Part shown: positions 5,209-58,629 of the stretch, piece after piece | How the letters are laid out: each line of letters begins with the position of its first letter | Numbering within the stretch: the stretch's first letter is position 1 | NCBI GenBank assembly: GCA_031413715.1 | Contig: JANOFO010000009.1 | Location: forward strand, 2,718-66,717 | DNA: 64,000 nucleotides | Direction: 5' to 3' | From: Minisyncoccota bacterium | GTDB taxonomy: Bacteria > Patescibacteriota > Minisyncoccia > Phycocordibacterales > UBA9973 | The notes under the pieces: generated by a model | What the model saw: the letters and a program-made list of their open reading frames with translations, nothing else | What the model was told of the DNA's origin: nothing | Databases searched by the model: none | Program-made: the position numbers and the translations under genes

Positions 5209-5295
5209 AGCTATTAACCCTTTCTTTTTAAGCTCATTTTTGCTATACTGTGAGAGTATTTCACCCGTCTAAAAGGGCGATTTTTCAATAACAAA

Positions 5296-43785: not shown

Positions 43786-45075
43786 ATGTCTAAAAAAACT
43801 AAAAAGAAAATTATTAAAAAATCAAAAAAGAAAGCGATCAAAAAAAATATTGTCAAGAAATCTGCTAAAAAAGGAGCAAAAAAGAACGTGTCCAAGAAAA
43901 AGGTTTTAAAAAAGCCTGCAAAATCTACCAAGAAACCTCTAAAGAAGCAAAACGAGCCCAAGAAGGCAGCTAAGGGTGCCAAAGCTACCGCACTTGAGCG
44001 CAAAGCTCACGACCTTGAACAGAAATCACAATTAATGATAGAAAAAGGCAAGAAACGCGGTTTTGTGACATATGATGAAATCATAAAAGTTTTTCCTGAT
44101 ATCGAGAACAATATTCTTTTCCTTGATGAACTCTACGAGAAGCTCTCGATATCTGGTATCGATGTTCTTGAAGGTGGAAATCTTCTTGATATGGATGGCG
44201 ACACAGAGAAGCAGGCGCTTAAATACTCTAAAGATGCTCAGACGTATGACTCTATACAGATGTATTTAAAGGAAATTGGCCAGTATCCGCTTATTACTGC
44301 ATTTGATGAGAAAGATCTGGCTCGTCGTATTGAAAAAGGTGATATGGAAGCCAAGAACTTGCTTGCTCGTGCGAACCTCCGTCTCGTGGTATCTATAGCA
44401 AAAAAATACGTCGGACGTAGTTCAGATCTTACCCTTCTTGATCTCATACAGGAAGGAAACCTTGGACTATTTAAAGCAGTCGAGAAATTTGACTGGACGA
44501 AGGGCTATAAATTCTCGACATATGCTACGTGGTGGATCCGTCAGTCTATCACTCGCGCACTTGCTGACCAGTCTCGCACGATCCGTATTCCAGTTCACAT
44601 GGTGGAGACTATTTCCAAATACAAACAGGTTGTTCGCAGACTTTCTCAGGATCTTGGCCGTGAGCCACTAGTGGAAGAAATAGCAACGGAGATGAATTTG
44701 GAAGTTGAAAAGATTCACATCATTGAGCAGATCAATCAGGAAACAGTCTCACTTGAACAGCCGATAGGGGATGACGACGAAAAGTCTACTCGTGGCGAAT
44801 TCATTCCTGATGACAAGATCCTCCGTCCCGATCAAGATGCCTCACGTCGTATCCTATCTGACCAAATCAAAGAAGTTCTAGATACACTTACACCTAAAGA
44901 AAGAAAAATTCTAGAGTTGCGCTATGGTTTAAACGACGGCATTCAGCATACACTCGAAGAAGTGGGAACAGAGTTTAATGTCACTCGTGAGCGTATCCGT
45001 CAAATTGAAGCGAAGGTTCACGAAAAGCTCCGCAATAACGAAAAAATCGCAAGACTTAAAAACTACTTTGATTAA
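43786..45075 (+). CDS. rpoD: RNA polymerase sigma factor (sigma70 family) with N-terminal Lys-rich extension
   Basis: Regions 2-4 ([13 protein letters not shown], helix-turn-helix [20 protein letters not shown]). N-terminal KKxxKK repeats. Confidence 0.9.
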
Positions 45076-45679
45076 AAAAACAAAAGATATTTTAAAAAAA
45101 GTTATAGCCGCTATCATTATTACTATATTAGCGATTTTTGTTGCCTTTTCAAATTCAAAAGATAAAGAAGTATTTAAAGAAGCAAATATTGAAGTGAAAG
45201 AGTTCTCTGATAGCGAAAAAACTGAAGAAGTTAACCAAAAAGACTCTTCTATAAAGGACCAGAAAGCTCGGTATTTCTCTCTTGCTGCTGAACAAATGCA
45301 AAAGGGTGATTTTAGATCATCAATTGAAAATTTTCAAAAAGTAGTAAATATTGATCCTACTAATAATTTTGAACCACAGAACATAAGAGCACTTTCAGGT
45401 GAATTATCTTTATATATAGTTTTAGGAAGAAATGGAGACATTAGAGATTCAGATAATAAAAGGATAATTGAAGTCGCGACAAAAATCATAGATTCTGGTA
45501 TTGTTAATGATCCAGATGTTGCAGGTATCTACTTTGCTAGAGGAGTAGCATATGCCGATAGTAAGCAATATGATAAGGCAATTGCTGATTTTGACCTTGT
45601 CATAAAGATTGATCCCTCTATGAGAGAAGAGGCTCTGAATTTCAGAGAAGATGTCTTAAGAGAAAAAGAAGGGTTATAG
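45069..45679 (+). CDS. TPR-repeat protein with N-terminal TM anchor (start uncertain)
   Basis: Open from 44978, overlapping the rpoD end. A TTG at 45069 overlapping the rpoD stop is a plausible start. [18 protein letters not shown], then TPR-like repeats. Confidence 0.5.
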
Positions 45680-45691
45680 TAGGGTAGCAAC

Positions 45692-45790
45692 AGTTACTCG
45701 CGAGCGTATCCGTCAGATCGAAGCCAAAGTTCACGAAAAGCTCCATAATAACGAAAAAATCGCAAGACTTAAAAACTACAAGGAAAGAAA
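45692..45790 (+). repeat. Diverged (~90% identity) duplicate of the rpoD 3' end (matches 44983..45066)
   Basis: Would encode [29 protein letters not shown], the same peptide as the real rpoD C-terminus apart from R to H, with mostly synonymous nucleotide changes. Confidence 0.85.
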
Positions 45791-45800
45791 TACAAAAATA

Positions 45801-45836
45801 AAAAGACCATTTTTTAAAAGATGGTCTTTTCGTTTG
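45801..45836. terminator. Bidirectional rho-independent terminator
   Basis: AAAAGACCAT-tttttaaaag-ATGGTCTTTT with an A-rich 5' flank. Confidence 0.75.
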
Positions 45837-45837
45837 A

Positions 45838-46536
45838 TTATAGCTGTCCTGAAACTGTATCTTTCTTGTCCATCAAACCAAAGAGTAAGTCAGCATACTT
45901 CCAGAATGCATCTTCGCCTTTCAATTTAGCGACACAGTCAGCCGCAGTGAGCATTGCAAATGAATGCTGATGAAGAGGGTAGTGACGATAAATCCAGGCG
46001 GTATCTGGATTCTCCTTTACGATTCTCTCTAATACCGGATGATATCCTTTACAGTATGGACATTCAAAATCAGAATATTCTATTATGGTGACTTTAGCAT
46101 TCGGATTACCCATGACATGATCGCCTGGCTCGGAAAGTACGACATTACCAGTGTAGGGTATTGTTGCTTTACCGAGAAGAGCATCATCAACTATCTTTTT
46201 CGTATTTTCATATGTTTCTTGTCCGCGAATATCTGTTCTGGCTCCGTTTTGACCAATGACGATAGTATACGGAGTACCGCGCTGCTCTCGAGGATACGGA
46301 CTCATAGCTTTATCCACACTTTGCACGATACGAGCATTAAGAGCCTCATCATCGGTTCCCTCGATACATGCCTGCAAGCTCGCATTGGATACTCCTACCT
46401 GTTCGGATAGTGTTTTTGGGGTGGAGATGCCACTGCCACCTCGAGTGCCCAAAATACCAATCATAATAAGGACTCCAGCAACAATAATAGCTGAAGGAAC
46501 TGAAATTTGAGATTTACTCGCTGGCTTATTTTCCAT
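45838..46536 (-). CDS. DsbA-family thiol:disulfide oxidoreductase, membrane anchored
   Basis: 232 aa. N-terminal TM. Thioredoxin-fold CxxC motif FECPYCKGYHP. Confidence 0.8.
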   Translation of the reverse strand: MENKPASKSQISVPSAIIVAGVLIMIGILGTRGGSGISTPKTLSEQVGVSNASLQACIEGTDDEALNARIVQSVDKAMSPYPREQRGTPYTIVIGQNGARTDIRGQETYENTKKIVDDALLGKATIPYTGNVVLSEPGDHVMGNPNAKVTIIEYSDFECPYCKGYHPVLERIVKENPDTAWIYRHYPLHQHSFAMLTAADCVAKLKGEDAFWKYADLLFGLMDKKDTVSGQL

Positions 46537-46645
46537 ACGTAGTATTGTATCATGACTTTTTATTGCACGCTACGAGGCAGTATATGTTATAATAAAAACG
46601 TTATTAAATGGTCTCTTTATTATTAATTTTCCACTTCTAGGTGGA

Positions 46646-46954
46646 ATGCGAGTACACAATATGATGACATGTAATTGTAAAAGTGGATGCGGTTGCTCGA
46701 AGTTTGGGTTGGTCCTTATTATTATCGGTGGTCTTAACTGGGGCCTTGTCGGCGCAGGTATGCTCTTTGGTTCTATGCACGACATGAGTTGGAATGTTGT
46801 CCATATGCTCCTTGGATCATGGCCAGTTGTCGAAGGCATTGTTTATCTCTTGGTAGGTATTGCGGCAATCGTCAAAATTTTTGGCTGCCCATGCAAGAAA
46901 TGCAAAGGTATGGATGCTGCCCCTATGGGAACTCCTTCTGGTTCATCAATGTAA
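46646..46954 (+). CDS. DUF378-like small membrane protein with Cys-rich N- and C-terminal extensions
   Basis: GLNWGLVGAGMLFG matches the DUF378 signature. CNCKSGCGC and CPCKKCKG cysteine clusters. Confidence 0.55.
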   Translation: MRVHNMMTCNCKSGCGCSKFGLVLIIIGGLNWGLVGAGMLFGSMHDMSWNVVHMLLGSWPVVEGIVYLLVGIAAIVKIFGCPCKKCKGMDAAPMGTPSGSSM

Positions 46955-47018
46955 ATAAGGCTTTTGTAAAGCATCCTGACCATGTCAGGGTGTTTTACGT
47001 TGGATAATATGGCTTTTT

Positions 47019-48296
47019 ATGCTATCATGCATTCTACGTATGGCTTATAGTATAATCTTTTATACACTTGCTTTTTGCGCTGTATATGTCCAGGTATATT
47101 TCTTGGTGACGTTTTTAGAGAAACGTCGCTCGATTATTCGATACCCTGACACCCTTGGCCTACAATATTATCCTAGTGTGACAATTATCATACCGTGTTA
47201 TAACGAGGAAAAAACAATCGGCGCAACAGTTGAGTCACTTCTTGCACTCGACTATCCGAAGGATAAAGTCTCGATCTTTTTGGTAGACGATGGTAGTACC
47301 GATGATACGTGGAATGTTTTTAAAAGTTTTGACAATATCTCAAACATTCGTATCTTCCAGAAGGAAAACGGCGGCAAGCATACATGTCTTAATCTCGGGC
47401 TCGAGCATACAACAACAGAATTCGTCGGCTGTCTAGATTCTGATTCGTTTGCTCATCCACAAGCTCTAAAGCGCATGATGAAAATGTTTGAAGAAGACCC
47501 CAAGGCTATGGCGATTGTTCCTTCTATTATCGTCCTTAATCCTAAGAATATATTGCAAGATGCTCAGAAAATTGAGTACGAAATGGCAATTTATATAAAG
47601 AAAATGCTAGGCTTCATGGGGGGTATTCATGTTACTCCCGGGCCGCTTTCCATGTTTAAGAAAAAAGTTTTTGATGAGCTTGGACCATATCGTAAAGCTC
47701 ATAATACTGAAGATCAGGAAATTGCCCTCCGAATGCAGGAACATCACTACAAAATTGATCATTGTCCTGATGCATATGTCTACACACTTACACCAAGCTC
47801 ATTGCCGAAGCTTTATCGTCAACGCCTGCGTTGGGTATATGGATTCCTTAAGAATACAGTTGATTATCGAAGGCTTTTATTTAAAAGAAAGTATGGGACC
47901 GTAGCCTTCTTCACTATCCCATCTGGTCTCATTTCGATTATCTCTGTTCTCTTTATTTTTGGAGTGTTTTTGTATCATACAAGTAGCTTTGTCTATCATA
48001 AAATTATCGAAATCAATACCATTGGGTTCTCTCAATTATCACTTTCTGGATTCAAATTTGATTGGTTCTTCTTTAATACGAAAGCAATCGTCTTCTTCTC
48101 GATAATCCTTTACCTTCTTCTTATTACCGCTATGATCATTGGTCGTAATATTGCAAATGCGAAAAGTGGATTTTCTTTCAAGATCATTTATTTTATTCTT
48201 ATTTACAGTATCATTGCACCATTCTGGCTTTTTAGAGCGGTCCTTAATTCCGTTTTTTCAAAAGAATCCAACTGGGCACTTGAGCGAAGCACATAA
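47019..48296 (+). CDS. Family 2 processive beta-glycosyltransferase (membrane-embedded synthase, QxxRW motif)
   Basis: IIIPCYNEE, DDGSTDDT, DSDS and QRLRW motifs, then 4-5 C-terminal TM helices. Alternative start at 47040. Confidence 0.85.
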   Translation: MLSCILRMAYSIIFYTLAFCAVYVQVYFLVTFLEKRRSIIRYPDTLGLQYYPSVTIIIPCYNEEKTIGATVESLLALDYPKDKVSIFLVDDGSTDDTWNVFKSFDNISNIRIFQKENGGKHTCLNLGLEHTTTEFVGCLDSDSFAHPQALKRMMKMFEEDPKAMAIVPSIIVLNPKNILQDAQKIEYEMAIYIKKMLGFMGGIHVTPGPLSMFKKKVFDELGPYRKAHNTEDQEIALRMQEHHYKIDHCPDAYVYTLTPSSLPKLYRQRLRWVYGFLKNTVDYRRLLFKRKYGTVAFFTIPSGLISIISVLFIFGVFLYHTSSFVYHKIIEINTIGFSQLSLSGFKFDWFFFNTKAIVFFSIILYLLLITAMIIGRNIANAKSGFSFKIIYFILIYSIIAPFWLFRAVLNSVFSKESNWALERST

Positions 48297-48306
48297 TATA
48301 TAAACT

Positions 48307-49038
48307 ATGGAACCATATAAAACAAACTGGGCAAAAATTTTCTTCGTTTTTCTTATCACAATTATGCTTTTTGGTATTGCTTTTGGATTATCTTATTACT
48401 TTAATAACAAGAAGATCGTAGAGCTCCGTGAGATTGAAAATAAGATCTCAATTGATCTTATGTCGTCAGAAACGCAGTTTGCGCTTCTTGAAGAACTCGC
48501 ATGTAAAGATGTCCAGACCACAGTGCTTTCAACTGAACTTAATTCACTTGCGGATCGAATCACATACAGCGAAGAGAACATCGGTACAACGAATGTCGAC
48601 GTCATCAGTCTCAAACGTTCATATTCGCTTCTGGAAATTAAGGATTATCTTCTTATGAAGAAGATTACTGAACGCTGTGGGCAAAAGCCGATATTTGTAC
48701 TCTATTTCTACAATAATAACGATTGCAGCGATTGTACGAAGCAAGGATATGTGCTGACGAGCCTCCGCGAAAAGTATCCAGACCTCCGGGTGTATTCGTT
48801 TGACTATAATCTTGACCTCTCTGCTCTCAGGGCCATGATTTCAATCTATAAGGTTCCAGATCAGTTACCAGCTCTGGTGATAAACGGCAAGGTATATAGC
48901 GGGTTTCAGAGTGTAGAAGATATAGAGAGTATTGAGCCAGCTATCCCAAAATCGCTTGTTAAACCTGAAGACGCAGTCAAGAAAACAGATACTTCCAAGT
49001 CAAAATCTGTTCCTGCACCCACAAAACCTAAGGAGTAA
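48307..49038 (+). CDS. Membrane-anchored protein with a CxxC motif (possible thioredoxin-like fold)
   Basis: 243 aa. N-terminal TM. YFYNNNDCSDCTKQGYVL. C-terminal K/P-rich tail. Confidence 0.45.
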   Translation: MEPYKTNWAKIFFVFLITIMLFGIAFGLSYYFNNKKIVELREIENKISIDLMSSETQFALLEELACKDVQTTVLSTELNSLADRITYSEENIGTTNVDVISLKRSYSLLEIKDYLLMKKITERCGQKPIFVLYFYNNNDCSDCTKQGYVLTSLREKYPDLRVYSFDYNLDLSALRAMISIYKVPDQLPALVINGKVYSGFQSVEDIESIEPAIPKSLVKPEDAVKKTDTSKSKSVPAPTKPKE

Positions 49039-49082
49039 TATTGAACTCTTCTTTCAAAGTTTCTATTAGCTCATCAATTTGT

Positions 49083-49215
49083 GCGGGTAGATACCCGCGC
49101 TTCTAGCGGAAATGCCCGAGGCTCTTACTCATGCTTGCCCCACATCCTCCCGTTCGCGCGCACTTCTTCCGCTAATTTTAGGACGGAAAGAGAAAACGAG
49201 CGGAAACCCCCTTAA
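49083..49215. ncRNA. GC-rich island in a 650-bp AT-rich intergenic region; candidate structured RNA of unknown class
   Basis: Hairpin GCGGGTAgatACCCGC. Long-range pairing TAGCGGAA (49102) with TTCCGCTA (49163). Roughly 60% GC against an AT-rich surround. No match by eye to SRP, RNase P or tmRNA consensus. Confidence 0.3.
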
Positions 49216-49446
49216 TTCACAGCAATATAACAATTTTTATTGTCTGTGGTTTATAACTTTTTGTAAAAATTCAGAAACAATAGTGGCTTATTTCGGTTGC
49301 TTTTGATGTGTATTGTTTTTTAATTACAACAATAAAAATTACTACCATTTTTATTGTTTTCTGGTACACTTGTAATATAATATTATAAATTAATTTAACA
49401 TAAAAACTATGGAACATACACCGATATTAAATAATGCTTCATTGAA

Positions 49447-49629
49447 ATGATTGGAGCAATTGAAAAAGGAGCTATAAAATATGATGATACATGGGTAGAT
49501 CTCGTCGCTGTAAAAAATGATGAACTCGCACAACTTGAAGAAGGGTGGGGAGGTCTCCTAATATTATTGGCAGTCCACAGGGAAAGAGCTCAGAAATTCC
49601 TCATGAAAAAATTGTTGCGATTATTGTAA
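49447..49629 (+). CDS. Small hypothetical ORF (60 aa)
   Basis: Only an ORF in the long leader upstream of 49696. No support beyond an open frame. Confidence 0.2.
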   Translation: MIGAIEKGAIKYDDTWVDLVAVKNDELAQLEEGWGGLLILLAVHRERAQKFLMKKLLRLL

Positions 49630-49695
49630 AACACTTAAAGAAGAAAATTTAATCTTTTAGTCACAGAAAAGACATTGTGACTAATAACTCTTAAT

Positions 49696-51801
49696 ATGAA
49701 AGAAAAAAATATTATTGAAAATAATACAAGAGAAGAGGTATATAATACGCTTAGACAGAAATTAAATATTTCACGAGAAGCGTTCAGTGAATCCGAAACA
49801 GTTTTAGGTTTGGTAACAGAGGAATTAAAACAGAGTTACGGAAAAAATTTGCAAGAAAGAGAGCAACTTATACTCATGCGCAAAATTGCATTGTTCCATC
49901 GGGGGAATGGTATAGCAGATGCAGTAATTATCGCCAAAACGATTATAGATACACCTGATCTATTACTCTCCAATGGATTCCCTAATCTAAAAACAGCCCT
50001 TGATATTGCCAAGAATTCTCAAAAAAAATCTGCAAATCAAGTATGGCAAGGTATATCAAACGAGACCAGAGATATGCCCACAATAGCTGAAGTTTCACTA
50101 GGAAACGGTAGCCATTATCTTGGTCGTATTTTTACAAAAAATCAAATCGCAGAGAATGGAGCTACGCTCAACACATGCATTCAAGGGAAAAGTCTTGAAA
50201 GATACTTCGATAAATCTGTGAGTGGTACTATAGAAATATTTTCGGTGTTTACTTCAAACTCTCATACTCCCATTACGACCATCGTATATGATTCTGGCCT
50301 TGGAGAAATTATGCAAGTAAAGAAACAAGACGATAGACTCCTTGATGGAGCGGAGCCATTTTTTGATGTAGTCATGGAATCTATTCACCACCTTGTATCT
50401 GAACCGAGCTATCGTACTGATGGTTCACCGTATTCGCGAACTGTTAAATATATCAGAGATATGGAAGATCTATCACCTGAACACCCGATAGCAATAGATA
50501 CATCTGGGGAAATTCGTCCGCTTGACGAAATGATATACACATCACCAGAAGCAATTTTGGGCGGTTCAAAAATAAAAGTTCATTCCGATATTAATATTCA
50601 AAAAATGATTGAGCTTACTGAAAGTGCACCTGTTGCCATTGATATGACCGAGGCGACAAACGAACAGCGTAAATCGTTACGAAAGGTACTCGGAACACTT
50701 GTTGATGACAGATCGTCAGTGAGCGGGTACGATTCACTGGAATCAGTTGGAGGCCAAATACTTGCTAATAACGCGAGCGCTGCTTCTTTCAAGAATCTAT
50801 CACATGTTCGACGGGGTTTGTACGCAAAAAAGGCAAAAGAAGTTTCAATACCTCTCTTACAAACGGTTTTAGGGAGGATTGATGTGCCTATGGCAGAAAC
50901 TCTCTACGCGCCTGAATTAACATTTGCGGGCGGAAATATAGATGCTTCTTCAGTGCAAGAGTTGATATTTTCAAAATTACAGAAAGTCGGGTGGGATATT
51001 CGTGCACACAATGCATCGCGAGTTGAAATGCCACTTGTCGAAGAAATTGGTGGTGAGTTTCAGGTTGAGCAAGCGTTAGAAATATTTGCACCATTGTTGC
51101 GCGTATGTCGTGGAATTAAAACTACGCCTCAAAGCAAAATAACAGTTCCGGATGCTATTTTGGTCTTTAGGGACAGCGGAAATGATGCTCAAGAAAAATT
51201 ATCTAAACTTCAGGAACAAGATCAAATATTACAAGAAAAAAATGCTGAGATTAAAACAAAGATTGAAGTGGTATTGCATGAATGGCAACAACAACTCCCT
51301 GAAGTAAAAATAATACTGGATGGGTCGCTAGTTTCAGGATTACATATCATTGACCAAGATACGAAAGTTATTGATGCTGATGTCCGAATATTGTCTGATA
51401 TGCCCATTACAGATGAGCTTCAGAAAAAGATTACATCAATCACTGGTCTTATATATCGCAAGACACATGACATAGATATTTGGCCTGATGGAGAAAAATT
51501 GGGTAAAGGTATTATGCTTGCTGAGGCCATGAAAATATTGGGGATTAATCTTCCTGTTGAAGTATGCGCTATGCTTCGTAGTAGTGCACAGTATATTAAT
51601 TGGGGACAATATTACAGGCAGGTACTTACAGAAAATGAAATTTTTAGTTATACTAAACAAAAACGATTACTGCAATCAGGAAGTGATGAAAAAGAATACA
51701 AGAAATTCAAAAAAAAGTATTTGGACTTGGTGCGAAAACGATGCGCTGAGCGTGGTTTAGTTGAACTGCCTAATTATGTATTACCTGAAGTCCCTAATTA
51801 G
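49696..51801 (+). CDS. Large hypothetical protein (701 aa), first gene of the P-loop/HD/Nudix cluster
   Basis: No TM segment, no motif recognised. Consistent coding frame. Confidence 0.6.
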   Translation: MKEKNIIENNTREEVYNTLRQKLNISREAFSESETVLGLVTEELKQSYGKNLQEREQLILMRKIALFHRGNGIADAVIIAKTIIDTPDLLLSNGFPNLKTALDIAKNSQKKSANQVWQGISNETRDMPTIAEVSLGNGSHYLGRIFTKNQIAENGATLNTCIQGKSLERYFDKSVSGTIEIFSVFTSNSHTPITTIVYDSGLGEIMQVKKQDDRLLDGAEPFFDVVMESIHHLVSEPSYRTDGSPYSRTVKYIRDMEDLSPEHPIAIDTSGEIRPLDEMIYTSPEAILGGSKIKVHSDINIQKMIELTESAPVAIDMTEATNEQRKSLRKVLGTLVDDRSSVSGYDSLESVGGQILANNASAASFKNLSHVRRGLYAKKAKEVSIPLLQTVLGRIDVPMAETLYAPELTFAGGNIDASSVQELIFSKLQKVGWDIRAHNASRVEMPLVEEIGGEFQVEQALEIFAPLLRVCRGIKTTPQSKITVPDAILVFRDSGNDAQEKLSKLQEQDQILQEKNAEIKTKIEVVLHEWQQQLPEVKIILDGSLVSGLHIIDQDTKVIDADVRILSDMPITDELQKKITSITGLIYRKTHDIDIWPDGEKLGKGIMLAEAMKILGINLPVEVCAMLRSSAQYINWGQYYRQVLTENEIFSYTKQKRLLQSGSDEKEYKKFKKKYLDLVRKRCAERGLVELPNYVLPEVPN

Positions 51802-51841
51802 ATTTTTATGCAAAAGTATGTAATTAACTATATATAATATT

Positions 51842-54136
51842 ATGAAACCAGAAAATTCGCCTAATATTGGCATAAAAAAAGCTATAGAATATGTTAAAAA
51901 ACAAGAGGATATGCTTACAAAAAGCAAAGAAACCCCTATTGAAATTGAGTTTGAAGGAGGGTTATCTGAAAGTCAAAAAGCAAAAAAACATATTGTATGT
52001 TTCGTAGGCATGCCGGGTGCGGGGAAAACAACGCAGATAGAAGCGCTCCAAGGTTACACAGGTGCTCCAGTATTTCATCTTGCAAAAGTCGCTAAAACTC
52101 TTAATCTTGAGAAAGATGGTGTACAAGTACCAGTAGCTGATCTTATGGAGGAAAAGAGAAAAATGGGTGAACTTATCGAAGGGCTCGATGATCTCTTTTT
52201 AGCTGAAGTTGCAAACTCAAAACAAGGCATTGCAATTCTTGATGGATTTCCAAGATCACCCGACCAAGCCGCACATCTGCTGGCGTATGCGGCGAAAAAT
52301 CGATGGCACATTGATGTTGTCTATCTTGAATCAGATGTGCATCATGCATGGCGTCATCAGGTACGGAGAGCGAAAAACTCGAATGAGAATGTTGATTGGG
52401 AAAGATTCGACGGCAAAATAGATAGGGCAATCCGCAAAGATATTCCTGCTGTACAAGCTCTGAAGTCGGCTGGTGTTCCAATTACCGAACTCGATGCGAC
52501 ACGTGACAAGAAGGATCTCAAGGGAGAGATACGAGAATCCCTTGGATTTTCATACGAGAATCTTCCTTGGGAAAAGAATATTCTTGAGTACGGAAAGATT
52601 GCTTCACAGCGCTCTGGCGTTCAACTTTGGTTTGGCGCAGGGATGTTGTATCGTCCTTTTTGGAACGGAAAGTTCGGCCCTTTTCAAGAATCAACTGACA
52701 AAGACATCTTTGTCATGCGGAAAGAAGATATTGAATCGGTACAAAAGGTTCTTGAAGAGATTGCACCTGATATTAGGTGGTCAGTACATAGCCGCGCCGA
52801 AGAGAGTGAGGCGCATTTCGGACATACACCTACAACACTAGAAGAAGGTATTACACACGCACCCATGAATTTTAGAAAAGGTGGAGTTCGTATGGGACCA
52901 GATGGAAAGATGGAGGTGCTATTGTCACCTATAGTTGAGGCCGATTTACGAAATGGCATATTGCGACTTGATGATTCAGTACTTGCTTCCATTGATCAGG
53001 CGAAGCGAGAAGAGTATATCAACGATGCTATGCGCCGTATGCACAAGACCTTGCGTGAATATCCTGGTCTGCAATTTGCTGATACCACGCTCGCAGAGAA
53101 GTATGCACAAGTGACCGGTTCTGCTCACGCACCAAAAGAGCTTATTACTCGATGGGAAGAAATACAGGACGAGATTTGGGAAACGGAGACTGGGGGGCGT
53201 GCTCGATGGAATCCTGATTCAATTAACATTGAACAAGAAAACCTTATGAACGAGCTTGTTTCTTTTTATCGTACAGTAGACAAGAGTCCCTCTGCTCCTC
53301 CTCGACCAAAGAAATCTATCATGCCTGTATTGATTGAAGATTTGCGTGTACGAAATATTACTGACAAGGTTCAGCCTCCCGAGGGATACGAATCATGGCT
53401 CCAGTATGTTATCCGCGAAGCAACTGACGCGGAGTTTTGCGAATGGCTTTTGAATCAGACTCGAAGCAGACAGCCGATTGGGGGGCGTGATCAAGATCTA
53501 TCGGGAATACTGACCTTTTCGCGAGAAAAAGAGCAAGAAATTGGAGTACAGACGCAGGAGCAGAAACGGTCGCATCTCGGATTTACACTCGACCAACACT
53601 TACTCGAATCGGCTTTGCAATTACATACAGATGAACTCGAAGAATTACTCAAGTCTTTTCCAGTAATTCCATTGCAGTTTAGAGATGTACGTGCTTCCTT
53701 ACGCATGGGTATGCTCTATCACGACATCGGAAAATTGTACAATGTGCATACGCCTGGCTCCCATGAAGGAGTCGGAGCAAAAATGTGGAATCGCTTAAAA
53801 CCGTCATGGATATCAGACGAACAAGCAAGCCTTGCAGAATGGATTATTCGAACTCACGACGTATTCGGAAGGTTGGCGCGTGGCATTACAGAAAAGGAAA
53901 ATAAATCGCTTGAAGATAATAGTTTCAACCCAATGGCAACCCCATCTTATCAGGGAGCACTTGATCCCCATGAAGCCTTGGGTGAACTAGAGCGACTTGG
54001 TTACCCGAGGGATCTAGTGATAGCTCTGCATAAAATAGCGTGGACTGCGGATGTAAGTTCAGTCTCGGCACTCAGATGGATTTTACCGGCAGCAGACATC
54101 CTAGAGAAAATCGTTATACAAGAAACAAAAAAATAG
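51842..54136 (+). CDS. Multidomain protein: N-terminal adenylate-kinase-like P-loop NMP-kinase domain plus C-terminal HD-superfamily phosphohydrolase domain
   Basis: Walker A FVGMPGAGKTT and the AK-like ILDGFPRSPDQA motif. C-terminal HD motifs LHTDE...MLYHDIGK...HTPGSHEGV...IRTHDVFG...HKIAWTAD. Confidence 0.65.
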   Translation: MKPENSPNIGIKKAIEYVKKQEDMLTKSKETPIEIEFEGGLSESQKAKKHIVCFVGMPGAGKTTQIEALQGYTGAPVFHLAKVAKTLNLEKDGVQVPVADLMEEKRKMGELIEGLDDLFLAEVANSKQGIAILDGFPRSPDQAAHLLAYAAKNRWHIDVVYLESDVHHAWRHQVRRAKNSNENVDWERFDGKIDRAIRKDIPAVQALKSAGVPITELDATRDKKDLKGEIRESLGFSYENLPWEKNILEYGKIASQRSGVQLWFGAGMLYRPFWNGKFGPFQESTDKDIFVMRKEDIESVQKVLEEIAPDIRWSVHSRAEESEAHFGHTPTTLEEGITHAPMNFRKGGVRMGPDGKMEVLLSPIVEADLRNGILRLDDSVLASIDQAKREEYINDAMRRMHKTLREYPGLQFADTTLAEKYAQVTGSAHAPKELITRWEEIQDEIWETETGGRARWNPDSINIEQENLMNELVSFYRTVDKSPSAPPRPKKSIMPVLIEDLRVRNITDKVQPPEGYESWLQYVIREATDAEFCEWLLNQTRSRQPIGGRDQDLSGILTFSREKEQEIGVQTQEQKRSHLGFTLDQHLLESALQLHTDELEELLKSFPVIPLQFRDVRASLRMGMLYHDIGKLYNVHTPGSHEGVGAKMWNRLKPSWISDEQASLAEWIIRTHDVFGRLARGITEKENKSLEDNSFNPMATPSYQGALDPHEALGELERLGYPRDLVIALHKIAWTADVSSVSALRWILPAADILEKIVIQETKK

Positions 54137-54203
54137 TTTAAAAATCATAAATATATAGAGAGTTGATTATTATTAATAAATTTATCACAATATAAAAGAA
54201 ATT

Positions 54204-55508
54204 ATGAAAACTCCTGACCAACCAAACACTAATACCCGAGAACTACAACCACTAACTGGTCGTGAAGGTATTGATATGTTAAAAGCATCATCTGCAAAAG
54301 TGTCTGGCATTAGTTTGGTTGATTTTCTGAAAACTTCTGAAGGCAAAGAGGCCATGAAGCAAAAGAAAATCGTACTCGCTGGCCCCCCTCGTTCCGGTAA
54401 ATCTTGCCTACGGCAAGGATTAAAGGATGCCATAAAGCAAATAAGCAATGGTGACGTGTATCCTTATGTTTTGACAGCATGTCCTGATGGCGAGGGTGCA
54501 TGGTTCCAAGAATCAATGAACAATGATCCTATCCTGGCAGCCAAACTAAAAGCAGACTACAAATCAAAATTTACTCCAGAGTTCGTGGAAAGAATTACAA
54601 AATCTGTAGAAAATTTATCACTTCCGCTTAGTTTTGTTGATATAGGAGGTATGACTACTCCAGAGAATGAACAAATTTGCAAACACACAAATGGCGCTAT
54701 ACTACTTTGTGGCGAGACAGCAACTAAGAACGACGCCCCAGCTGAATGGAAAATTTTTTTTACAAAACTCGGTATTCCAATTATTGCTGAAGTTTATTCA
54801 GACTATAAAGGTATAGAAGATATAGTTGATGGAACTGGAGGAGATGGTGTGTTTAGAGGTTCTATACACCATCTTGAACGAGGTGAACCTCTTTTAAACA
54901 GAGAAACCATTAGAGCGTTAGGTAGTTTCATAATTAATCTTGGGAAAGAAATAGATGATACATTGAACATAACACATACAGTAAAACAGCTACAGGGTGC
55001 AGGAATAGATATAACAAATTGGGGTAAGGGAGGAACAAAAACTGTAGAACAATTACATAAGGAAATTCAAGACGAAGAGACCATTTTAGTTCAGGGTGAA
55101 CGCGGAGAGCTTTTAAGGAAAGTCATTGTAGGTGGTGGCGATATTTATTACACCTCGCCTGAAGGAAAAAAATATCGCTTGATCGAAGAAAAACAGGTTT
55201 TTGCCAATGGTAGTGAAAGAAGAAGAAACTTGGGACACGCTGTATCAGAAAAACTAAAGCACGGCGAAGATATAAAAGAAGCAATGATCCGTGGTATTAG
55301 TGAAGAGCTCGGCATCTCGGGAGATATATCTTTAGAAGAAGTAAAAACCCATGAAGAAATTCTATCCTCTCCTAGTTACCCTGGCTTAAGATCGCAATAC
55401 ATACTACCGGAGTTTAAGATACTCCTAACTCAAGAACAGTTTAAGCCAGAGGGCTATATTGAAACACAATCAGACAAGAGCACTTACTTTATTTGGAAAG
55501 AAATTTAA
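54204..55508 (+). CDS. Multidomain protein: P-loop NTPase (GPPRSGKS) plus C-terminal Nudix-like domain
   Basis: Walker A LAGPPRSGKS. C-terminal E-x7-RGISEELGI fits a Nudix box with one deviation (G in place of E at the REx position). Confidence 0.5.
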   Translation: MKTPDQPNTNTRELQPLTGREGIDMLKASSAKVSGISLVDFLKTSEGKEAMKQKKIVLAGPPRSGKSCLRQGLKDAIKQISNGDVYPYVLTACPDGEGAWFQESMNNDPILAAKLKADYKSKFTPEFVERITKSVENLSLPLSFVDIGGMTTPENEQICKHTNGAILLCGETATKNDAPAEWKIFFTKLGIPIIAEVYSDYKGIEDIVDGTGGDGVFRGSIHHLERGEPLLNRETIRALGSFIINLGKEIDDTLNITHTVKQLQGAGIDITNWGKGGTKTVEQLHKEIQDEETILVQGERGELLRKVIVGGGDIYYTSPEGKKYRLIEEKQVFANGSERRRNLGHAVSEKLKHGEDIKEAMIRGISEELGISGDISLEEVKTHEEILSSPSYPGLRSQYILPEFKILLTQEQFKPEGYIETQSDKSTYFIWKEI

Positions 55509-55513
55509 TCAAC

Positions 55514-56287
55514 TTATTCTGGATACTGATTTATAGGATATTTATTCCAGAGAGTGTCAAACAGCATATCAAAAGTTTTTCTAATATTTTGATCTTCTAT
55601 GATGGTAGTAATCATGCAATCTGCGAAAGAACTAAGCGCAACTTTATTTCCGTAAACGATAACCTGCGCCGGATTATTCAATTCCGTACGTGGCACTCGT
55701 TTTCTCTCAGTTAAATATTTTTCATCTTCTGCTTTGGAAATTGTACTGGGAGTGTTCTTGATTGGCACAATAAGTTTTATCTTAATACCAATTTCTCTTA
55801 ATGCTTCTCGATTTTTTGACCAAATTGGAATTACTTCTTCAGCATTATTATCAAGTGGAGAGCGGATCAGTTTAATATCAGACTTCGTGTGTAGTATGTC
55901 TTTATTTAGAATCTTCAATCCCTCTAGCCCTTCATAGAAACGCACCGTTGGTTTTCCGCATGCGAGATTAAACTGTGCTCCAAGTGTGCTAACCGCTTCA
56001 TGCAGAGCTTGGTCGGCAAGTTTTAAATCTTCTTCTTTTCTTTTTACTAGAGTGTGAAGTTTTGAAGGATGGAGTGCGGTGAAAGTACTAACTGATCCGG
56101 GGACAGTGCTTTCAATTATTAAACCTAATTCAACGAGTTGTTTTAGTATTTTATATACCAAACTGCGATTAACTCTACTTTCTAGAGCTATTTTTCTTGC
56201 CGGTAAAGCACCCGAAGAAACTAAAGATAAATATACTTTTGCCTGTTCAAGATTTAAACCAACTTGTTCTAGTAATTTTGTGCTCAT
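55514..56287 (-). CDS. TrmB-family transcriptional regulator
   Basis: N-terminal winged HTH LEQAKVYLSLVSSGALPARKIALESRVNRSLVYKILKQLVELGLI, then a C-terminal TrmB-like domain. Confidence 0.7.
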   Translation of the reverse strand: MSTKLLEQVGLNLEQAKVYLSLVSSGALPARKIALESRVNRSLVYKILKQLVELGLIIESTVPGSVSTFTALHPSKLHTLVKRKEEDLKLADQALHEAVSTLGAQFNLACGKPTVRFYEGLEGLKILNKDILHTKSDIKLIRSPLDNNAEEVIPIWSKNREALREIGIKIKLIVPIKNTPSTISKAEDEKYLTERKRVPRTELNNPAQVIVYGNKVALSSFADCMITTIIEDQNIRKTFDMLFDTLWNKYPINQYPE

Positions 56288-56398
56288 AAATTGTTTTTTC
56301 TACATAACAATAATAGCCTTATATTATCATAGTGGTATATAAGCTGTCAAATTTGCGTAAATATATCCTTATTTATATAGGTATTTATAAAATAATGC

Positions 56399-56427
56399 TT
56401 GACATTTAGAACTCAATATGCTATACT
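56399..56427 (+). promoter_or_regulatory. Near-consensus sigma70 promoter TTGACA-17-TATACT
   Basis: TTGACA at 56399-56404, TATACT at 56422-56427, about 55 nt upstream of a GGGAGGTG Shine-Dalgarno. Confidence 0.55.
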
Positions 56428-56480
56428 TATCCTAGTTAAGTTAGTTCTTTAAAAATAACCATAGTTATCGGGAGGTGAAC

Positions 56481-56579
56481 ATGAACGCAATAAATTTTGT
56501 TTTCATATCCACCTTCCGATTCACGGATAGTGAAAAACAATCCGCCGGTGATTGGTCCGGCAAAAATTATGTTAAATGA
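56481..56579 (+). CDS. Small peptide gene (32 aa, MNAINFVFISTFRFTDSEKQSAGDWSGKNYVK) translationally coupled (ATGA overlap) to the downstream gene
   Basis: Strong SD GGGAGGTG 6 nt upstream of ATG. The stop overlaps the start of 56576..56881. Confidence 0.4.
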   Translation: MNAINFVFISTFRFTDSEKQSAGDWSGKNYVK

Positions 56580-56881
56580 AATATTTTAATATAAATCTTG
56601 AGGGCGATACCCTTAAGATAGGGTTTGGTCAACCTGCCCAAAATGATCAAATTGTTTCCGAGGTTATCGAGACCTTAGAAGCAATGAAAACCTCCGGGGA
56701 GCTTGCTGGAGGAAAACTGGTAAAAATTAACGGGCCGGCAAGCCTGCCAGTAGCGATGGCAATAGGCCATGCCGTCGCCCATCTCTATGAGGTGGTGGCC
56801 TGCTTCGACCCGAAGCTGGCCAAGTATGTGGTTGCCGTTTCGCACGGCGTAGACCACAGGCCAGGCGACCTGATTGATTAA
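56576..56881 (+). CDS. Hypothetical 101-aa protein; the 3' half of the gene is strongly GC-rich (~58% GC), suggesting foreign origin
   Basis: Consistent frame. No motif recognised. Composition shifts from AT-rich to GC-rich midway through the gene. Confidence 0.55.
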   Translation: MKYFNINLEGDTLKIGFGQPAQNDQIVSEVIETLEAMKTSGELAGGKLVKINGPASLPVAMAIGHAVAHLYEVVACFDPKLAKYVVAVSHGVDHRPGDLID

Positions 56882-57072
56882 AAGATCAAGTTCGCCGGAG
56901 GGAGTTTAAATATTCTCCTAAGTTCCGTAAATTCGGAATACTGAACAAAATATTTTATTTGTCCCCGTATATCTAAAATAAGAAGGACTTATTTTAAGAA
57001 AATGGAGAGCCATGAGGGAGCAGAACCTCTATCGATCTTGGGGGATGAATAATTTATTTATCTCATTCCCCA

Positions 57073-57123
57073 GCTTTCACAAGATGCGTATCTTGTCTGA
57101 TGAGTCCAAAAGGACGAAAAAGC
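57073..57123 (+). ncRNA. Type III hammerhead self-cleaving ribozyme
   Basis: GCUUUC|ACAAGAU-gcgu-AUCUUGU CUGAUGA GUCC-aaaa-GGAC GAAA AAGC. Stem I is 7 bp, core is C3UGAUGA9, stem II is 4 bp with the G10.1-C11.1 pair, then G12A13A14, A15.1-U16.1, and stem III of 5 bp. Predicted cleavage after C at 57078. Confidence 0.8.
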
Positions 57124-57143
57124 ATATAAAAACTTTTGTAATT

Positions 57144-57170
57144 AAAAAACCACCTTACGGTGGTTTTTTA
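57144..57170. terminator. Bidirectional rho-independent terminator
   Basis: AAAAAACCACC-ttac-GGTGGTTTTTT. Confidence 0.8.
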
Positions 57171-57310
57171 ATTCATATAGTATTTTAAATTTTGCCCATC
57201 GCCCCATACCAAATTTAAATTCCCCCGCCAAACAAAGCTAGAATTAAAAGCAATGGGGTGAGGGCGGATGCACCGAAGGCGCATGGCGGAGTTCATTGGG
57301 TGTTGATTGC

Positions 57311-57385
57311 GGAGCCGCCTCCCAGACTCGAACTGGGGACCCTCACTTTACAAAAGTGTAGCTCTACCAACTGAGCTAAGGCGGC
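57311..57385 (-). tRNA. tRNA-Thr (anticodon TGT)
   Basis: Reverse complement GCCGCCTTAGCTCAGTTGGTAGAGCTACACTTTTGTAAAGTGAGGGTCCCCAGTTCGAGTCTGGGAGGCGGCTCC folds as a cloverleaf: 7-bp acceptor stem, GTTCGAGTC T-loop, anticodon loop TTTGTAA. A27-A43 mismatch; CCA not encoded. Confidence 0.85.
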
Positions 57386-57430
57386 ATACTAATTTTCTTC
57401 TTCTTTCAAACTTCAATTATTAATTACTCT

Positions 57431-57832
57431 TTATTCGTGTTCTTCTTTCACTTTCTCCTTGACCCTTCTTATCTTGGCTTTTGATTCCAGTATCGCTTTA
57501 CGGAAAAACGAAGGTCTCCTTGGAGTATCGGGGGATTCTGGCTTCCTTTTTAAGTAAGCATTTACCTTTGGCCAACTATCAGCAATCTTCTTCTTTGTCT
57601 TAGTTGTCAATATAAACCAGTATTTTACAATAACGAGCACGATATTCTGAACCACGTGCTTGATGAAATATAACATACTTTTCTCCACATGTCTAAACGA
57701 TAGATCTGGTAGGGGACTCTCCGTATACTCCGGTAATTTTACTCTCTCGGTGCGGAGTTCCCATGCCCGAAATACGAGCATTCCAAATGCTACGATAATC
57801 GCGACAATAAAGATAATGAAAATTATAAGCAT
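57431..57832 (-). CDS. Small hypothetical membrane protein with basic C-terminal tail
   Basis: 133 aa. N-terminal TM. K/R-rich C-terminus. Confidence 0.45.
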   Translation of the reverse strand: MLIIFIIFIVAIIVAFGMLVFRAWELRTERVKLPEYTESPLPDLSFRHVEKSMLYFIKHVVQNIVLVIVKYWFILTTKTKKKIADSWPKVNAYLKRKPESPDTPRRPSFFRKAILESKAKIRRVKEKVKEEHE

Positions 57833-57846
57833 AATATTTAGAGCTA

Positions 57847-58629
57847 CTAACCAATCGACTCACGTACAAATCGTACCAAAGTCGCACCCTTATCTGCAAG
57901 TAGCTTACCAACAGTTACATCAGGATTCTTTATGAATGATTGATCCATAAGTGTTTGTTCTTTGAAGTAAGTAGTTATTTTTCCTTCGAGCATTTTTTTC
58001 TTTATATCTTCAGATTTGTTCGATTCACCGACTTCCTTTTCAAAGACCTCGATTACTTTTTTCTTATCTTCTTCAGTTATATCATCACTTTTTGTAAATG
58101 CTGGCTTCATAGCTGCGATATGCATAGCGATATCTTTGGCAAGTTCAGATGTCCCGGCTGTAAGCGATACGATGACAGCGCTTTTACCGCCATGAACGTA
58201 TGCTCCGATAGTATCGCCAGTGACTTCCTCGACTCGGCCAAGTTCGATCTTCTCTCCTACTTTCTGAATCACAGGATTTATCATATCTCCAGCTCTTTCT
58301 TTCATCTTTCCTATTCCATCATTAAATGCAACTTGAGCAAGTTCCCGCGCGAGTTTTGTGAAGTCTTCATTTTTGGCAACGAAATCAGTTTCTGAATTTA
58401 GAGTAAGCAATAGCGCTCTGCCAATCTCTTCCATTACAACAATAGTACCATCATGCGCATCACGATCAGCTTTCTTCATCGCGATAGTACTTGATTTCTT
58501 TTTGAGTATTATCAAGGCTTTTTCCATATCGCCCTCTGCTTCCTCGAGTGCTGTTCGGCACTGCATTACAGAGACGCCAGTTGCATCTCTTAATTCTTTA
58601 ACTTGCTCTGCTGTGATTTTTGTAGACAT
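57847..58629 (-). CDS. tsf: Elongation factor Ts
   Basis: MSTKITAEQVKELRDATGVSVMQCRTALEEAEGDMEKAL UBA-like N-terminus. 260 aa. Confidence 0.92.
   Translation of the reverse strand: MSTKITAEQVKELRDATGVSVMQCRTALEEAEGDMEKALIILKKKSSTIAMKKADRDAHDGTIVVMEEIGRALLLTLNSETDFVAKNEDFTKLARELAQVAFNDGIGKMKERAGDMINPVIQKVGEKIELGRVEEVTGDTIGAYVHGGKSAVIVSLTAGTSELAKDIAMHIAAMKPAFTKSDDITEEDKKKVIEVFEKEVGESNKSEDIKKKMLEGKITTYFKEQTLMDQSFIKNPDVTVGKLLADKGATLVRFVRESIG

Follow-up and report, generated by a model that had tools for sequence, protein, structure and literature searches.

A hammerhead ribozyme joined to a stable hairpin at the end of a csx3-like expression cassette: a candidate 3'-end-forming element

Thousands of hammerhead ribozymes were catalogued in 2011, and their role in bacteria and phages has been unclear since (PMC3088659, PMC6765202). 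In prophages, clustered hammerheads flank single genes; three such arrays cleaved themselves in vitro, and the role proposed for them is the processing of long transcripts to gene-length mRNAs (PMC3088659). Processing of mRNAs or of their 3' untranslated regions (UTRs) has been suggested for bacterial hammerheads, and ribozymes placed in 3' UTRs affect reporter expression, with twister 3'-UTR reporters among those mentioned (PMC6765202). Csx3/Crn3, the other described system of relevance here, is a ring nuclease acting on cyclic tetraadenylate, and the catalytic or ligand residues of AfCsx3 are H57, H60, D69, R71 and H80 (PMC7371418). The analysis presented here concerns a stretch of 64,000 nt from contig JANOFO010000009.1 of a Minisyncoccota bacterium (the whole stretch is referred to as the window), and within it the locus at 56399-57385 together with the module genes upstream. 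In this locus a small csx3-like gene is followed by a type III hammerhead ribozyme.

The region appears to be a self-contained expression cassette for a Csx3/Crn3-like protein, of a type that occurs in genomes of the candidate phyla radiation (CPR; Patescibacteria-type), the host assignment being taken from the labels of the related loci. The hammerhead is very likely a functional self-cleaving ribozyme. That it serves to form the 3' end of the csx3 mRNA and to insulate it from the RNA beyond is the reading best supported by the comparisons below, and is held with moderate confidence. The parts of the transcription unit on which this reading depends are as follows.

56399-56427, plus strand: csx3 promoter (TTGACA at 56399-56404, 17-nt spacer, TATACT at 56422-56427; 11 of 12 matches)
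56576-56881, plus strand: csx3, 101 amino acids, Csx3/Crn3-family protein (Pfam PF09620, PADLOC and structure-profile matches)
57040-57071, plus strand: stable hairpin directly 5' of the ribozyme, with which the csx3 mRNA is predicted to end once cleaved
57073-57123, plus strand: type III hammerhead ribozyme, with predicted cleavage between C57078 and A57079
57144-57169, both strands: bidirectional intrinsic terminator, A6-CCACC-UUAC-GGUGG-U6 (AAAAAACCACC-UUAC-GGUGGUUUUUU), a perfect hairpin in the minimum free energy (MFE) and centroid folds

The hammerhead and its hairpin in the window and in relatives

A preliminary description of the locus, made from the letters of the window, had reported a complete hammerhead some 190 nt beyond the gene, followed 20 nt later by a bidirectional terminator and then by a convergent tRNA-Thr gene, and all three are present. 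The hammerhead starts 191 nt 3' of the csx3 stop codon, and the terminator begins 20 nt 3' of the ribozyme. Stem III (57073-57077/57119-57123) has 5 bp, stem I (57079-57085/57090-57096) has 7 bp and stem II (57104-57107/57112-57115) has 4 bp. The core consists of CUGAUGA at 57097-57103 (C3-A9), GAA at 57116-57118 (G12-A14) and C57078 as C17. A57119-U57077 forms the A15.1-U16.1 pair, and G57104-C57115 and A57079-U57096 pair at the edge of the core. Loops close stems I and II, whereas stem III is open, as in type III. The core agrees with the acceptance criteria of Perreault et al. (PMC3088659).

The ribozyme is conserved. A homology search with the 101-amino-acid protein, which the preliminary description had called for, gave 720 homologues, and 80 genomic loci encoding relatives were fetched for comparison (cited here by L numbers). 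The fetched loci and the window were searched with a simple descriptor scan and then with a covariance model. The same ribozyme is found in 14 fetched loci in addition to the window (15 of about 85 sources), with 20 copies in 0.92 Mb. A leave-one-out covariance model, built on 14 copies from other genomes with the window sequence excluded, scores 75 bits (E 6e-21) at 57066-57130 of the window and finds no second match anywhere in the 64 kb. When 14 copies are aligned, 99.1% of the 224 base-pair cells hold standard pairs, and 13 of the 16 pairs have undergone compensatory changes on both sides. None of 500 shuffles reached these values, and controls in which the partner was slid were 34-51% paired. 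Among the 14 sequences there is almost no variation in loop 1 (AUGUGUAU) or loop 2 (RAAA); the invariant or nearly invariant positions comprise loop 1 with its closing pairs (A19, T20, G21, T24 and T26) and A44-A46 of loop 2. The invariance of both loops is consistent with the usual tertiary contact for fast cleavage at physiological Mg2+.

The second conserved feature is structural. Each of the 16 related hammerheads examined has a stable hairpin on its 5' side, ending 1-8 nt before the cut, and the sequence of this hairpin shows no conservation between loci. The 45 nt ending at the cleavage site have a mean MFE of -12.6 kcal/mol, compared to -7.3 kcal/mol for random windows (p 5e-6, 16 copies), and the corresponding 45 nt in the window fold at -17.1 kcal/mol. 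No description of such an adjacent upstream hairpin was found in the hammerhead literature consulted for comparison.

The position of the ribozyme relative to csx3 is also recurrent. The distance from the csx3 stop codon to the hammerhead is 32-760 nt in 12 loci, the window among them. Two loci have the ribozyme just upstream of csx3 instead, and all other copies stand behind later genes of the transcription unit. At least one further gene comes after the ribozyme in nine of the 12 (L004, L043, L064, L020, L032, L011, L013, L062 and L024). The proteins encoded after the ribozyme in L004, L043, L064, L062, L011 and L013 match no Pfam, NCBIfam or PADLOC family; the exceptions among the cargo are L032, with a weak cold-shock domain, and L024, with a DEAD helicase. 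No gene follows the hammerhead in the window, L018 and L016; the first two of these have a terminator immediately behind the ribozyme. Because csx3 and the hammerhead occur together in these three loci without a downstream gene, the ribozyme appears to be retained even when there is nothing to separate. Several hammerheads lie on one strand in L024 (three), L032 (two) and L062 (three); the window has a single hammerhead in 64 kb and thus no cluster.

The pairing of hairpin and ribozyme extends to phages. Hammerheads of the same type III subtype are abundant in IMG/VR phage contigs (L089-L141), with 2-6 copies per contig on a single strand. A very stable GC-rich hairpin directly precedes all 47 of the 47 phage hammerheads (-18.4 versus -6.0 kcal/mol, p 1e-28). 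Examples are L098 8484-12983 and L091 3311-6052; the flanked genes mostly have no assigned function, and those between hammerheads in L098 are mostly without a PHROG match. The idea of a phage anti-CRISPR cassette is not supported: csx3 is present in five phage loci, none of them with a hammerhead, and none of the 53 hammerhead-bearing phage stretches has csx3.

A metagenome scan with the exact 33-base hammerhead pattern gave at least 120 contigs (L147-L266). A TrmB-type regulator lies divergently upstream on about 14 of the 120 contigs among the matches listed, and the first genes behind it differ. First genes other than csx3 encode proteins of 114, 116, 184 and 262 amino acids without a recognised family (for example in L195, L209, L220/L177, L214/L156 and L251), and these metagenomic cassettes show the divergent TrmB-type regulator, a strong promoter, a first gene of elevated GC content and the hairpin-hammerhead. 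Judging from these layouts, a unit of TrmB regulator, promoter, one or more genes and hairpin-hammerhead is general, with csx3 as one of its cargoes.

The csx3 gene, its leader and its surroundings

The 101-amino-acid protein belongs to the Csx3/Crn3 family. It matches Pfam PF09620 (Cas_csx3) with 24.4 bits (cut-off 21) over residues 33-100 and PADLOC profile PDLC01045, 'Csx3-AAA', with E 1e-24 over profile positions 1-99 of 286; the E values of the PADLOC Csx3 models range from 1e-24 to 2e-5. The family profile matches crystal structures of the Csx3 protein AF_1864 at E 0.02. The NCBIfam equivalog TIGR02579 gives 23.4 bits, under its cut-off of 55.4. According to the profile alignment to AF_1864 and the family alignment, H65, D78 and H90 are invariant in the family and correspond to AfCsx3 H57, D69 and H80. 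AfCsx3 R71 is replaced by K80 in the window protein, a lysine likewise invariant in the family, and AfCsx3 H60 aligns with A68, next to which stands an invariant histidine, H69.

The genes and conserved elements surrounding the unit are listed below.

54204-55508, plus strand: P-loop ATPase gene, 434 amino acids, matching the AAA half of 'Csx3-AAA' proteins; C-terminus weakly NUDIX-like
55514-56287, minus strand: TrmB-family transcription regulator gene, divergent from csx3 (Pfam TrmB, E 1e-11)
56323-56350, minus strand: promoter-like site of the TrmB gene (TTGACA, 16-nt spacer, GATAAT; 11 of 12 matches)
56444-56459, plus strand: conserved leader motif GTTCTTTAAAAATAAC, invariant in the leader alignment
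56468-56519, plus strand: conserved leader hairpin, enclosing the ATG at 56481 of a 32-codon open reading frame (ORF); the apparent Shine-Dalgarno (SD) sequence GGAGGTGA (56471-56478) forms the 5' arm
56481-56579, plus strand: 32-codon upstream ORF, ATG at 56481, non-conserved
56544-56561, plus strand: second leader hairpin, GCCGG-UGAUUGGU-CCGGC; 5 pairs, of which 3 are changed on both sides
56958-57029, plus strand: conserved 3'-UTR element, consisting of TTTGTCCCCGT, an inserted hairpin and AATGGAGAGCC, then the hairpin GAGG-GAGCAGAA-CCTC
57311-57385, minus strand: tRNA-Thr(UGU) (ARAGORN; Rfam tRNA 62.5 bits), convergent with the csx3 unit

The ATPase matches the same PDLC01045 profile as csx3, at E 3e-46 and over positions 88-285 of 286; its similarity to Pfam NUDIX (E 0.057) is below cut-off. 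ATPase homologues adjoin csx3 in 13 related loci, and TrmB orthologues occupy the same divergent position in eight other csx3 loci. Further upstream, a 764-amino-acid protein (51842-54136) combines an adenylate-kinase/zeta-toxin-like P-loop, an NTP_transf_6 nucleotidyltransferase and a GlnD/HD-like C-terminus, and a 701-amino-acid protein (49696-51801) is a paralogue of the Csx3-associated ATPase. Together with the ATPase-NUDIX-like gene, these two form a nucleotide-handling module upstream of csx3. The neighbours in the window are AAA, kinase/nucleotidyltransferase/HD, TrmB and housekeeping genes. There is no CRISPR-like array in the 64-kb window, and no cas gene was recognised in it among the ORFs profile-scanned. 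An orphan module of Csx3 and AAA protein exists outside CRISPR loci. Two csx3 paralogues are present in some loci (L011 3151-3555, L017 6600-6953, L062 3109-3456); one of each pair, native in composition, immediately precedes the ATPase gene, and its GC-rich counterpart stands behind the TrmB promoter together with the hammerhead.

The non-coding DNA ahead of csx3 is more conserved than the gene. The near-consensus promoter claimed by the preliminary description is present, with 11 of 12 matches and an extended -10 (TG at 56419-56420), and this strong promoter is conserved in L004, L043, L064 and the metagenomic L154. Hardly any position of the promoter or of the first ~135 nt of the transcript varies in these four loci, and the intergenic block 56330-56465, which holds both promoters, is nearly invariant relative to L004 2264-2400, L043 5739-5875, L064 5741-5877 and L154. 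The csx3 proteins of loci sharing this leader differ by 35-50%; conservation of the non-coding DNA thus far exceeds that of the adjoining coding sequence. The arms of the leader hairpin covary in RNAalifold (GGGAGGTG/CACCTTCC, CAGTAGGTG/CACCTACTG and CGGCAGGTG/CACCTGCCG), and the leader fold has a z-score of -5.6.

The preliminary description had also proposed that a strong SD sequence drives a 32-residue peptide gene whose stop overlaps the start of csx3. The sequence GGAGGTGA, the ORF and the overlap (ATGA at 56576-56579, containing the TGA of the ORF and the ATG of csx3) are all there. The supposed SD, however, is an arm of the covarying leader hairpin, and the corresponding arm in L154, GUUAGAUGAA, is not SD-like. 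Comparison with relatives also speaks against the peptide: the frame stops after 4 codons in L004, has no ATG in L043 and extends for 11 codons in L064. Since the ORF is not conserved, the 32-residue peptide was rejected as a gene and is very unlikely to be a gene product. The window csx3 is without an SD sequence of its own, and relatives have AGGAG 6-9 nt before the csx3 ATG. The fortuitous ORF ending in ATGA could couple translation to csx3 in this genome only.

The leader also contains the motif GTTCTTTAAAAATA(AC), about 12 nt after the predicted transcription start, with the partial palindrome GTTnTTTnnAAAnAAC in the leader copy only. L004 (2378 and 2945), L043 (5853 and 6399) and L064 (5855 and 6420) have the motif twice, once in the leader and again 1-3 nt after the hammerhead. 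In such multi-gene relatives each processed cistron would carry the leader motif near its 5' end. A degenerate copy, AACTTTTGTAAT, is present after the hammerhead of the window, before the terminator.

The conserved element in the 3' UTR consists of TTTGTCCCCGT, a variable hairpin, AATGGAGAGCC, 3 nt and a hairpin of 4-5 bp with an invariant AGCAGA loop. Its core is GnGAGCC-N7-AGCAGA, always on the csx3 strand and near csx3. The full element as in the window is found at L018 6379-6433, L003 936-992 and L040 6393-6449, and the core also in L001 (~4575-4625), L024 (~6420-6468), L058 (5765-5822 and 6363-6420) and L079 (1262-1325). Some loci with the element have a hammerhead and others do not, and L058 has one copy on each side of csx3. 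No Rfam ribozyme or riboswitch family matched the element. Replacement of the hammerhead by another ribozyme class at GC-extreme csx3 loci that lack one was likewise considered and dropped, with no Rfam match. Two further RNA-like sequences were noted in relatives. A tRNA-like acceptor stem and T-arm (GAGTCGG...GGTTCGATCCCTCACCGACTC), uncalled by ARAGORN, lies between csx3 and the first hammerhead of L024 (~6500-6560), and a truncated, sub-threshold match to the Rfam LOOT RNA (38 versus 46.4 bits) lies at a contig end in L004 (5950-6041).

The base composition of csx3 is anomalous. The GC content of about 58% reported for the downstream half of the gene is confirmed (0.58 in 56700-56849). The GC content of third codon positions (GC3) has a mean of 0.35 and a standard deviation of 0.056 over 48 ORFs of the window; csx3 has a GC3 of 0.52 overall, rising from 0.36 (5' half) to 0.69 (3' half), the latter 6 standard deviations above the window mean. 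Far more extreme values are reached by CPR-type csx3 alleles, with GC3 of 0.9-1.0 and almost no A at third positions in loci of 40-47% GC (L007, L058, L068, L064, L062 at 5850-6158, L013, L073 and L075). At those loci the neighbouring ATPase gene has a GC3 of ~0.25, the promoters, leaders, ribozymes and spacers are AT-rich, and the intergenic parts are 20-30% GC. Cargo genes after the hammerhead share the GC-rich bias. Cyanobacterial and Poribacteria csx3 genes have native composition and no hammerhead, and L154 has the window-type promoter and leader with a fully native csx3 (GC3 0.37).

The compositional anomaly noted in the preliminary description is real and located at synonymous sites. 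It is an oddity found across the family, and the flanking module genes in the window have native composition. A general GC rise of hammerhead-flanked genes was rejected as an explanation: since phage genes flanked by hammerheads are raised by just 2-4%, the GC3 anomaly is no general property of hammerhead cassettes. It may be due to repeated transfer of the ORF from high-GC lineages followed by amelioration; the cassette is indeed present in hosts of high GC content, namely L013, L020 and L057. Alternatively, it may be due to selection on the mRNA, for example for resistance to an RNase preferring A/U. Two GC-rich non-coding stretches of the AT-rich genome (49040-49240 and 57176-57312) fold no better than shuffles and have no Rfam match.

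The surroundings of the cassette differ among relatives. tRNA genes adjoin the csx3 unit in the window, L016, L018 and L058. In L058, two copies of a segment that are 79-86% identical (4982-5246 and 6685-6948) bracket the GC-rich csx3 cassette. The segment contains an odd tRNA-like gene to which ARAGORN assigns a 4-base anticodon, 'tacc', and rpsL-rpsG-fusA lies just beyond. A large serine recombinase is encoded beside the module in L062, and toxin-antitoxin and Abi genes are among the neighbours in relatives. In L024, a 233-nt unit made up of hairpin, hammerhead and next-gene leader is present twice (10353-10585 and 11038-11270), 95% identical and 685 nt apart, around a single 134-amino-acid gene.

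Cleavage, 3'-end formation and competing explanations

The arrangement suggests the following course of events. The divergent TrmB regulator and the near-consensus sigma-70 promoter would control and drive a transcript composed of the structured leader, csx3, the structured 3' UTR and the hairpin with the hammerhead. The hammerhead would fold and cut itself co-transcriptionally after C57078. The csx3 mRNA would then end with the hairpin at 57040-57071 and, beyond it, the 7 nt AGCUUUC bearing a terminal 2',3'-cyclic phosphate, an end that is independent of termination. The RNA past the cut would become a separate RNA with a 5'-OH; in the window it would be about 95 nt long and contain only the body of the ribozyme and the terminator. 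In most relatives the released RNA would comprise one or more cistrons, each again ending with a hairpin and a hammerhead, and the result would be gene-length mRNAs with protected 3' ends while transcription continues. In the window, the end formed by the hairpin and the cyclic phosphate would replace the terminator end. The ribozyme would thus serve as a cassette boundary and as a 3'-end-forming, insulating element, and not as a Csx3-specific device. The preliminary description had put forward, as its second option, an mRNA 3' end set by ribozyme cleavage, and it is this option that the hairpins in front of all 16 related hammerheads favour.

Several points weigh against this interpretation. 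The terminator 20 nt downstream would already give a stable 3' end, and the benefit of cleavage is not obvious. Protection of RNA by a hairpin and a 2',3'-cyclic phosphate is assumed for these bacteria, and cleavage could lower expression instead of raising it. The source organism is uncultivated, and the interpretation is drawn from sequence comparison. Among the metagenomic matches listed, csx3 is on only 4 of 120 contigs, and therefore nothing ties the ribozyme to the biochemistry of Csx3. With the Rfam model Hammerhead_3, whose gathering score is 48.5 bits, the window ribozyme reaches 23.7 bits (E 0.024 for 1.15 kb searched), and the related hammerheads score 30.3-46.7 bits, all under the gathering score.

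A low Rfam score is what would be expected of a chance hammerhead-like sequence without function, and in the whole window the tRNA is the sole match at the gathering threshold; the E-value mode returns the sub-threshold hammerhead together with chance terminator-like matches (rliG and psRNA14). This explanation was effectively ruled out by the E value of 6e-21 with the independent model and by the covariation, and the orthologous position and compensatory changes in at least 14 genomes leave it with a negligible probability. The sub-gathering score reflects the calibration of the model and no structural defect. A different objection accepts cleavage and reverses its effect: by stripping the terminator hairpin and U-tail, self-cleavage would expose the csx3 mRNA to decay and keep Csx3 low or condition-dependent. 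The ribozyme does lie in a 3' UTR upstream of a good terminator, the conserved structured element just upstream could modulate its folding, and an influence of 3'-UTR ribozymes on reporter expression is on record (PMC6765202). However, a hairpin before the cut in 16/16 relatives and 47/47 phage copies is expected if the cleaved end persists, and this invariable hairpin is the strongest pointer to a stabilised 3' end over triggered decay. Moreover, the 3'-UTR element is present in loci that lack a hammerhead (L003, L001, L040 and L058), and it is therefore no obligatory controller of the ribozyme. Negative control by turnover is considered unlikely. So is the proposal that the hammerhead is a vestige, an intercistronic processing site left over after deletion of the cargo and now without a role. 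More genes do follow the hammerhead in nine of the 12 loci, the window keeps just the degenerate post-ribozyme motif before the terminator, and the missing SD sequence and the native GC3 of the 5' half suggest that this csx3 is an old, eroding copy. The ribozyme itself shows no such erosion: all core nucleotides and 16 of 16 pairs are intact, and its leave-one-out score of 75 bits is as high as those of copies with downstream genes. L018 and probably L016 independently show csx3 and hammerhead without a downstream gene, with the terminator directly after the ribozyme in L018.

The compositional anomaly, the tRNA and the ribozyme had together been taken to suggest the remnant or cargo of a mobile element beside tRNA-Thr, with the ribozyme belonging to the biology of the element through transcript processing or RNA circles. 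Some of the evidence points this way, namely the GC3 of the 3' half of csx3, the values of 0.9-1.0 in relatives whose hosts have about 40% GC, next to an ATPase gene of native GC3, the recurrent tRNA genes, the L058 cassette between tRNA-like copies, the serine recombinase of L062, the Abi and toxin-antitoxin neighbours and the duplicated unit of L024. It is plausible that the accessory cassette has a history of transfer. For the window itself the claim of an element integrated at tRNA-Thr is unsupported. There is no direct repeat of the 3' part of the tRNA in 44000-58000, and no integrase, reverse transcriptase or phage family is found among the neighbours scanned, a part of the window ORFs. 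No unit-length RNA could be excised, because there is a single ribozyme. Promoter and leader are conserved far beyond the coding regions even though the cassettes compared encode proteins that differ by 35-50%, which indicates long-term selection rather than recent transfer, and L154 has the same cassette with fully native composition. The mobile-element explanation as a whole is highly doubtful. Similarly slim is the chance that the ribozyme units, besides punctuating expression, are recombination or RNA-level joints, integron-like or retrozyme-like, through which CPR bacteria and phages gain, duplicate and swap cassettes. The csx3 unit would then be one cargo of a family of hammerhead-bounded cassettes, each with a TrmB regulator, an invariant promoter and leader, ORFs of foreign composition and a hairpin-hammerhead-leader unit behind every ORF. 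The differing first genes behind the same regulator-promoter layout, the GC3 of up to 1.0 in ORFs amid AT-rich spacers, the 233-nt duplication in L024 and the tRNA-like bracketing in L058 fit this idea and are no proof of it. Formation and insulation of the 3' end remains the explanation preferred here.

Comparison with known systems

The locus adds one more case to a use of ribozymes that is known but little understood; it is not a new kind of system. No link of hammerheads with Csx3, or with the candidate phyla radiation or Patescibacteria, was found in the literature searched. With one promoter, one small gene, a hairpin, a ribozyme and a terminator, it is among the simplest natural cases, and the hairpin-ribozyme pair is a composite unit conserved in phage contigs as well as in CPR genomes. 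This gives the broad proposal of mRNA processing a specific and testable form, in which a hairpin-capped cyclic-phosphate 3' end is made without stopping transcription. Three features of the cassette go unexplained by this: the invariant leader with its GTTCTTTAAAAATAAC motif, the conserved 3'-UTR element and the extreme GC3.

The Csx3 side of the cassette differs from what has been described. The window protein matches the Csx3 half of Csx3-AAA, with the AAA partner gene near. Unlike in the fusion represented by PDLC01045, csx3 and the AAA gene of the window are separate and the TrmB gene lies between them, and unlike the Csx3/Crn3 ring nuclease, the window csx3 shows no association with a type III CRISPR-Cas locus among the ORFs scanned.

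The window ribozyme shares the catalytic core, C17 after the A15.1-U16.1 pair and the sizes of stems and loops with the type III hammerheads of Rfam RF00008 (clan CL00010). The subgroup to which it belongs is distinguished from RF00008 by a short, conserved loop 1 (GYGU closed by A-U/U-A) and by being always joined to a stable upstream hairpin. Because their Rfam scores fall just under the curated threshold, the whole subgroup is unannotated, and the thresholds of Rfam thus overlook an entire group of hammerheads.

The prophage hammerheads are the closest natural parallel (Perreault et al. 2011, PMC3088659). As in prophages, the window hammerhead is intergenic, on the coding strand and at the boundary of a small accessory gene, and the relatives L024, L032 and L062 and phage contigs such as L098 and L091 carry 2-6 copies on one strand. 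In contrast, the window has a single copy followed by a terminator instead of a gene. Its context is chromosomal, among housekeeping genes in a CPR-type genome, and its unit is headed by a conserved TrmB gene, promoter and leader.

A functional parallel is offered by engineered insulators and by ribozymes of 3' UTRs. Insulators of the RiboJ type consist of a hammerhead and a hairpin, the hairpin of RiboJ being downstream of the cut, and the mammalian CLEC2 hammerhead is a ribozyme in a 3' UTR. Such elements likewise uncouple an ORF from neighbouring RNA and fix the end of the transcript, and an adjacent hairpin shields that end. Unlike RiboJ, the arrangement in the window is natural, and its hairpin lies upstream of the cut, where it would protect the 5' product of cleavage.

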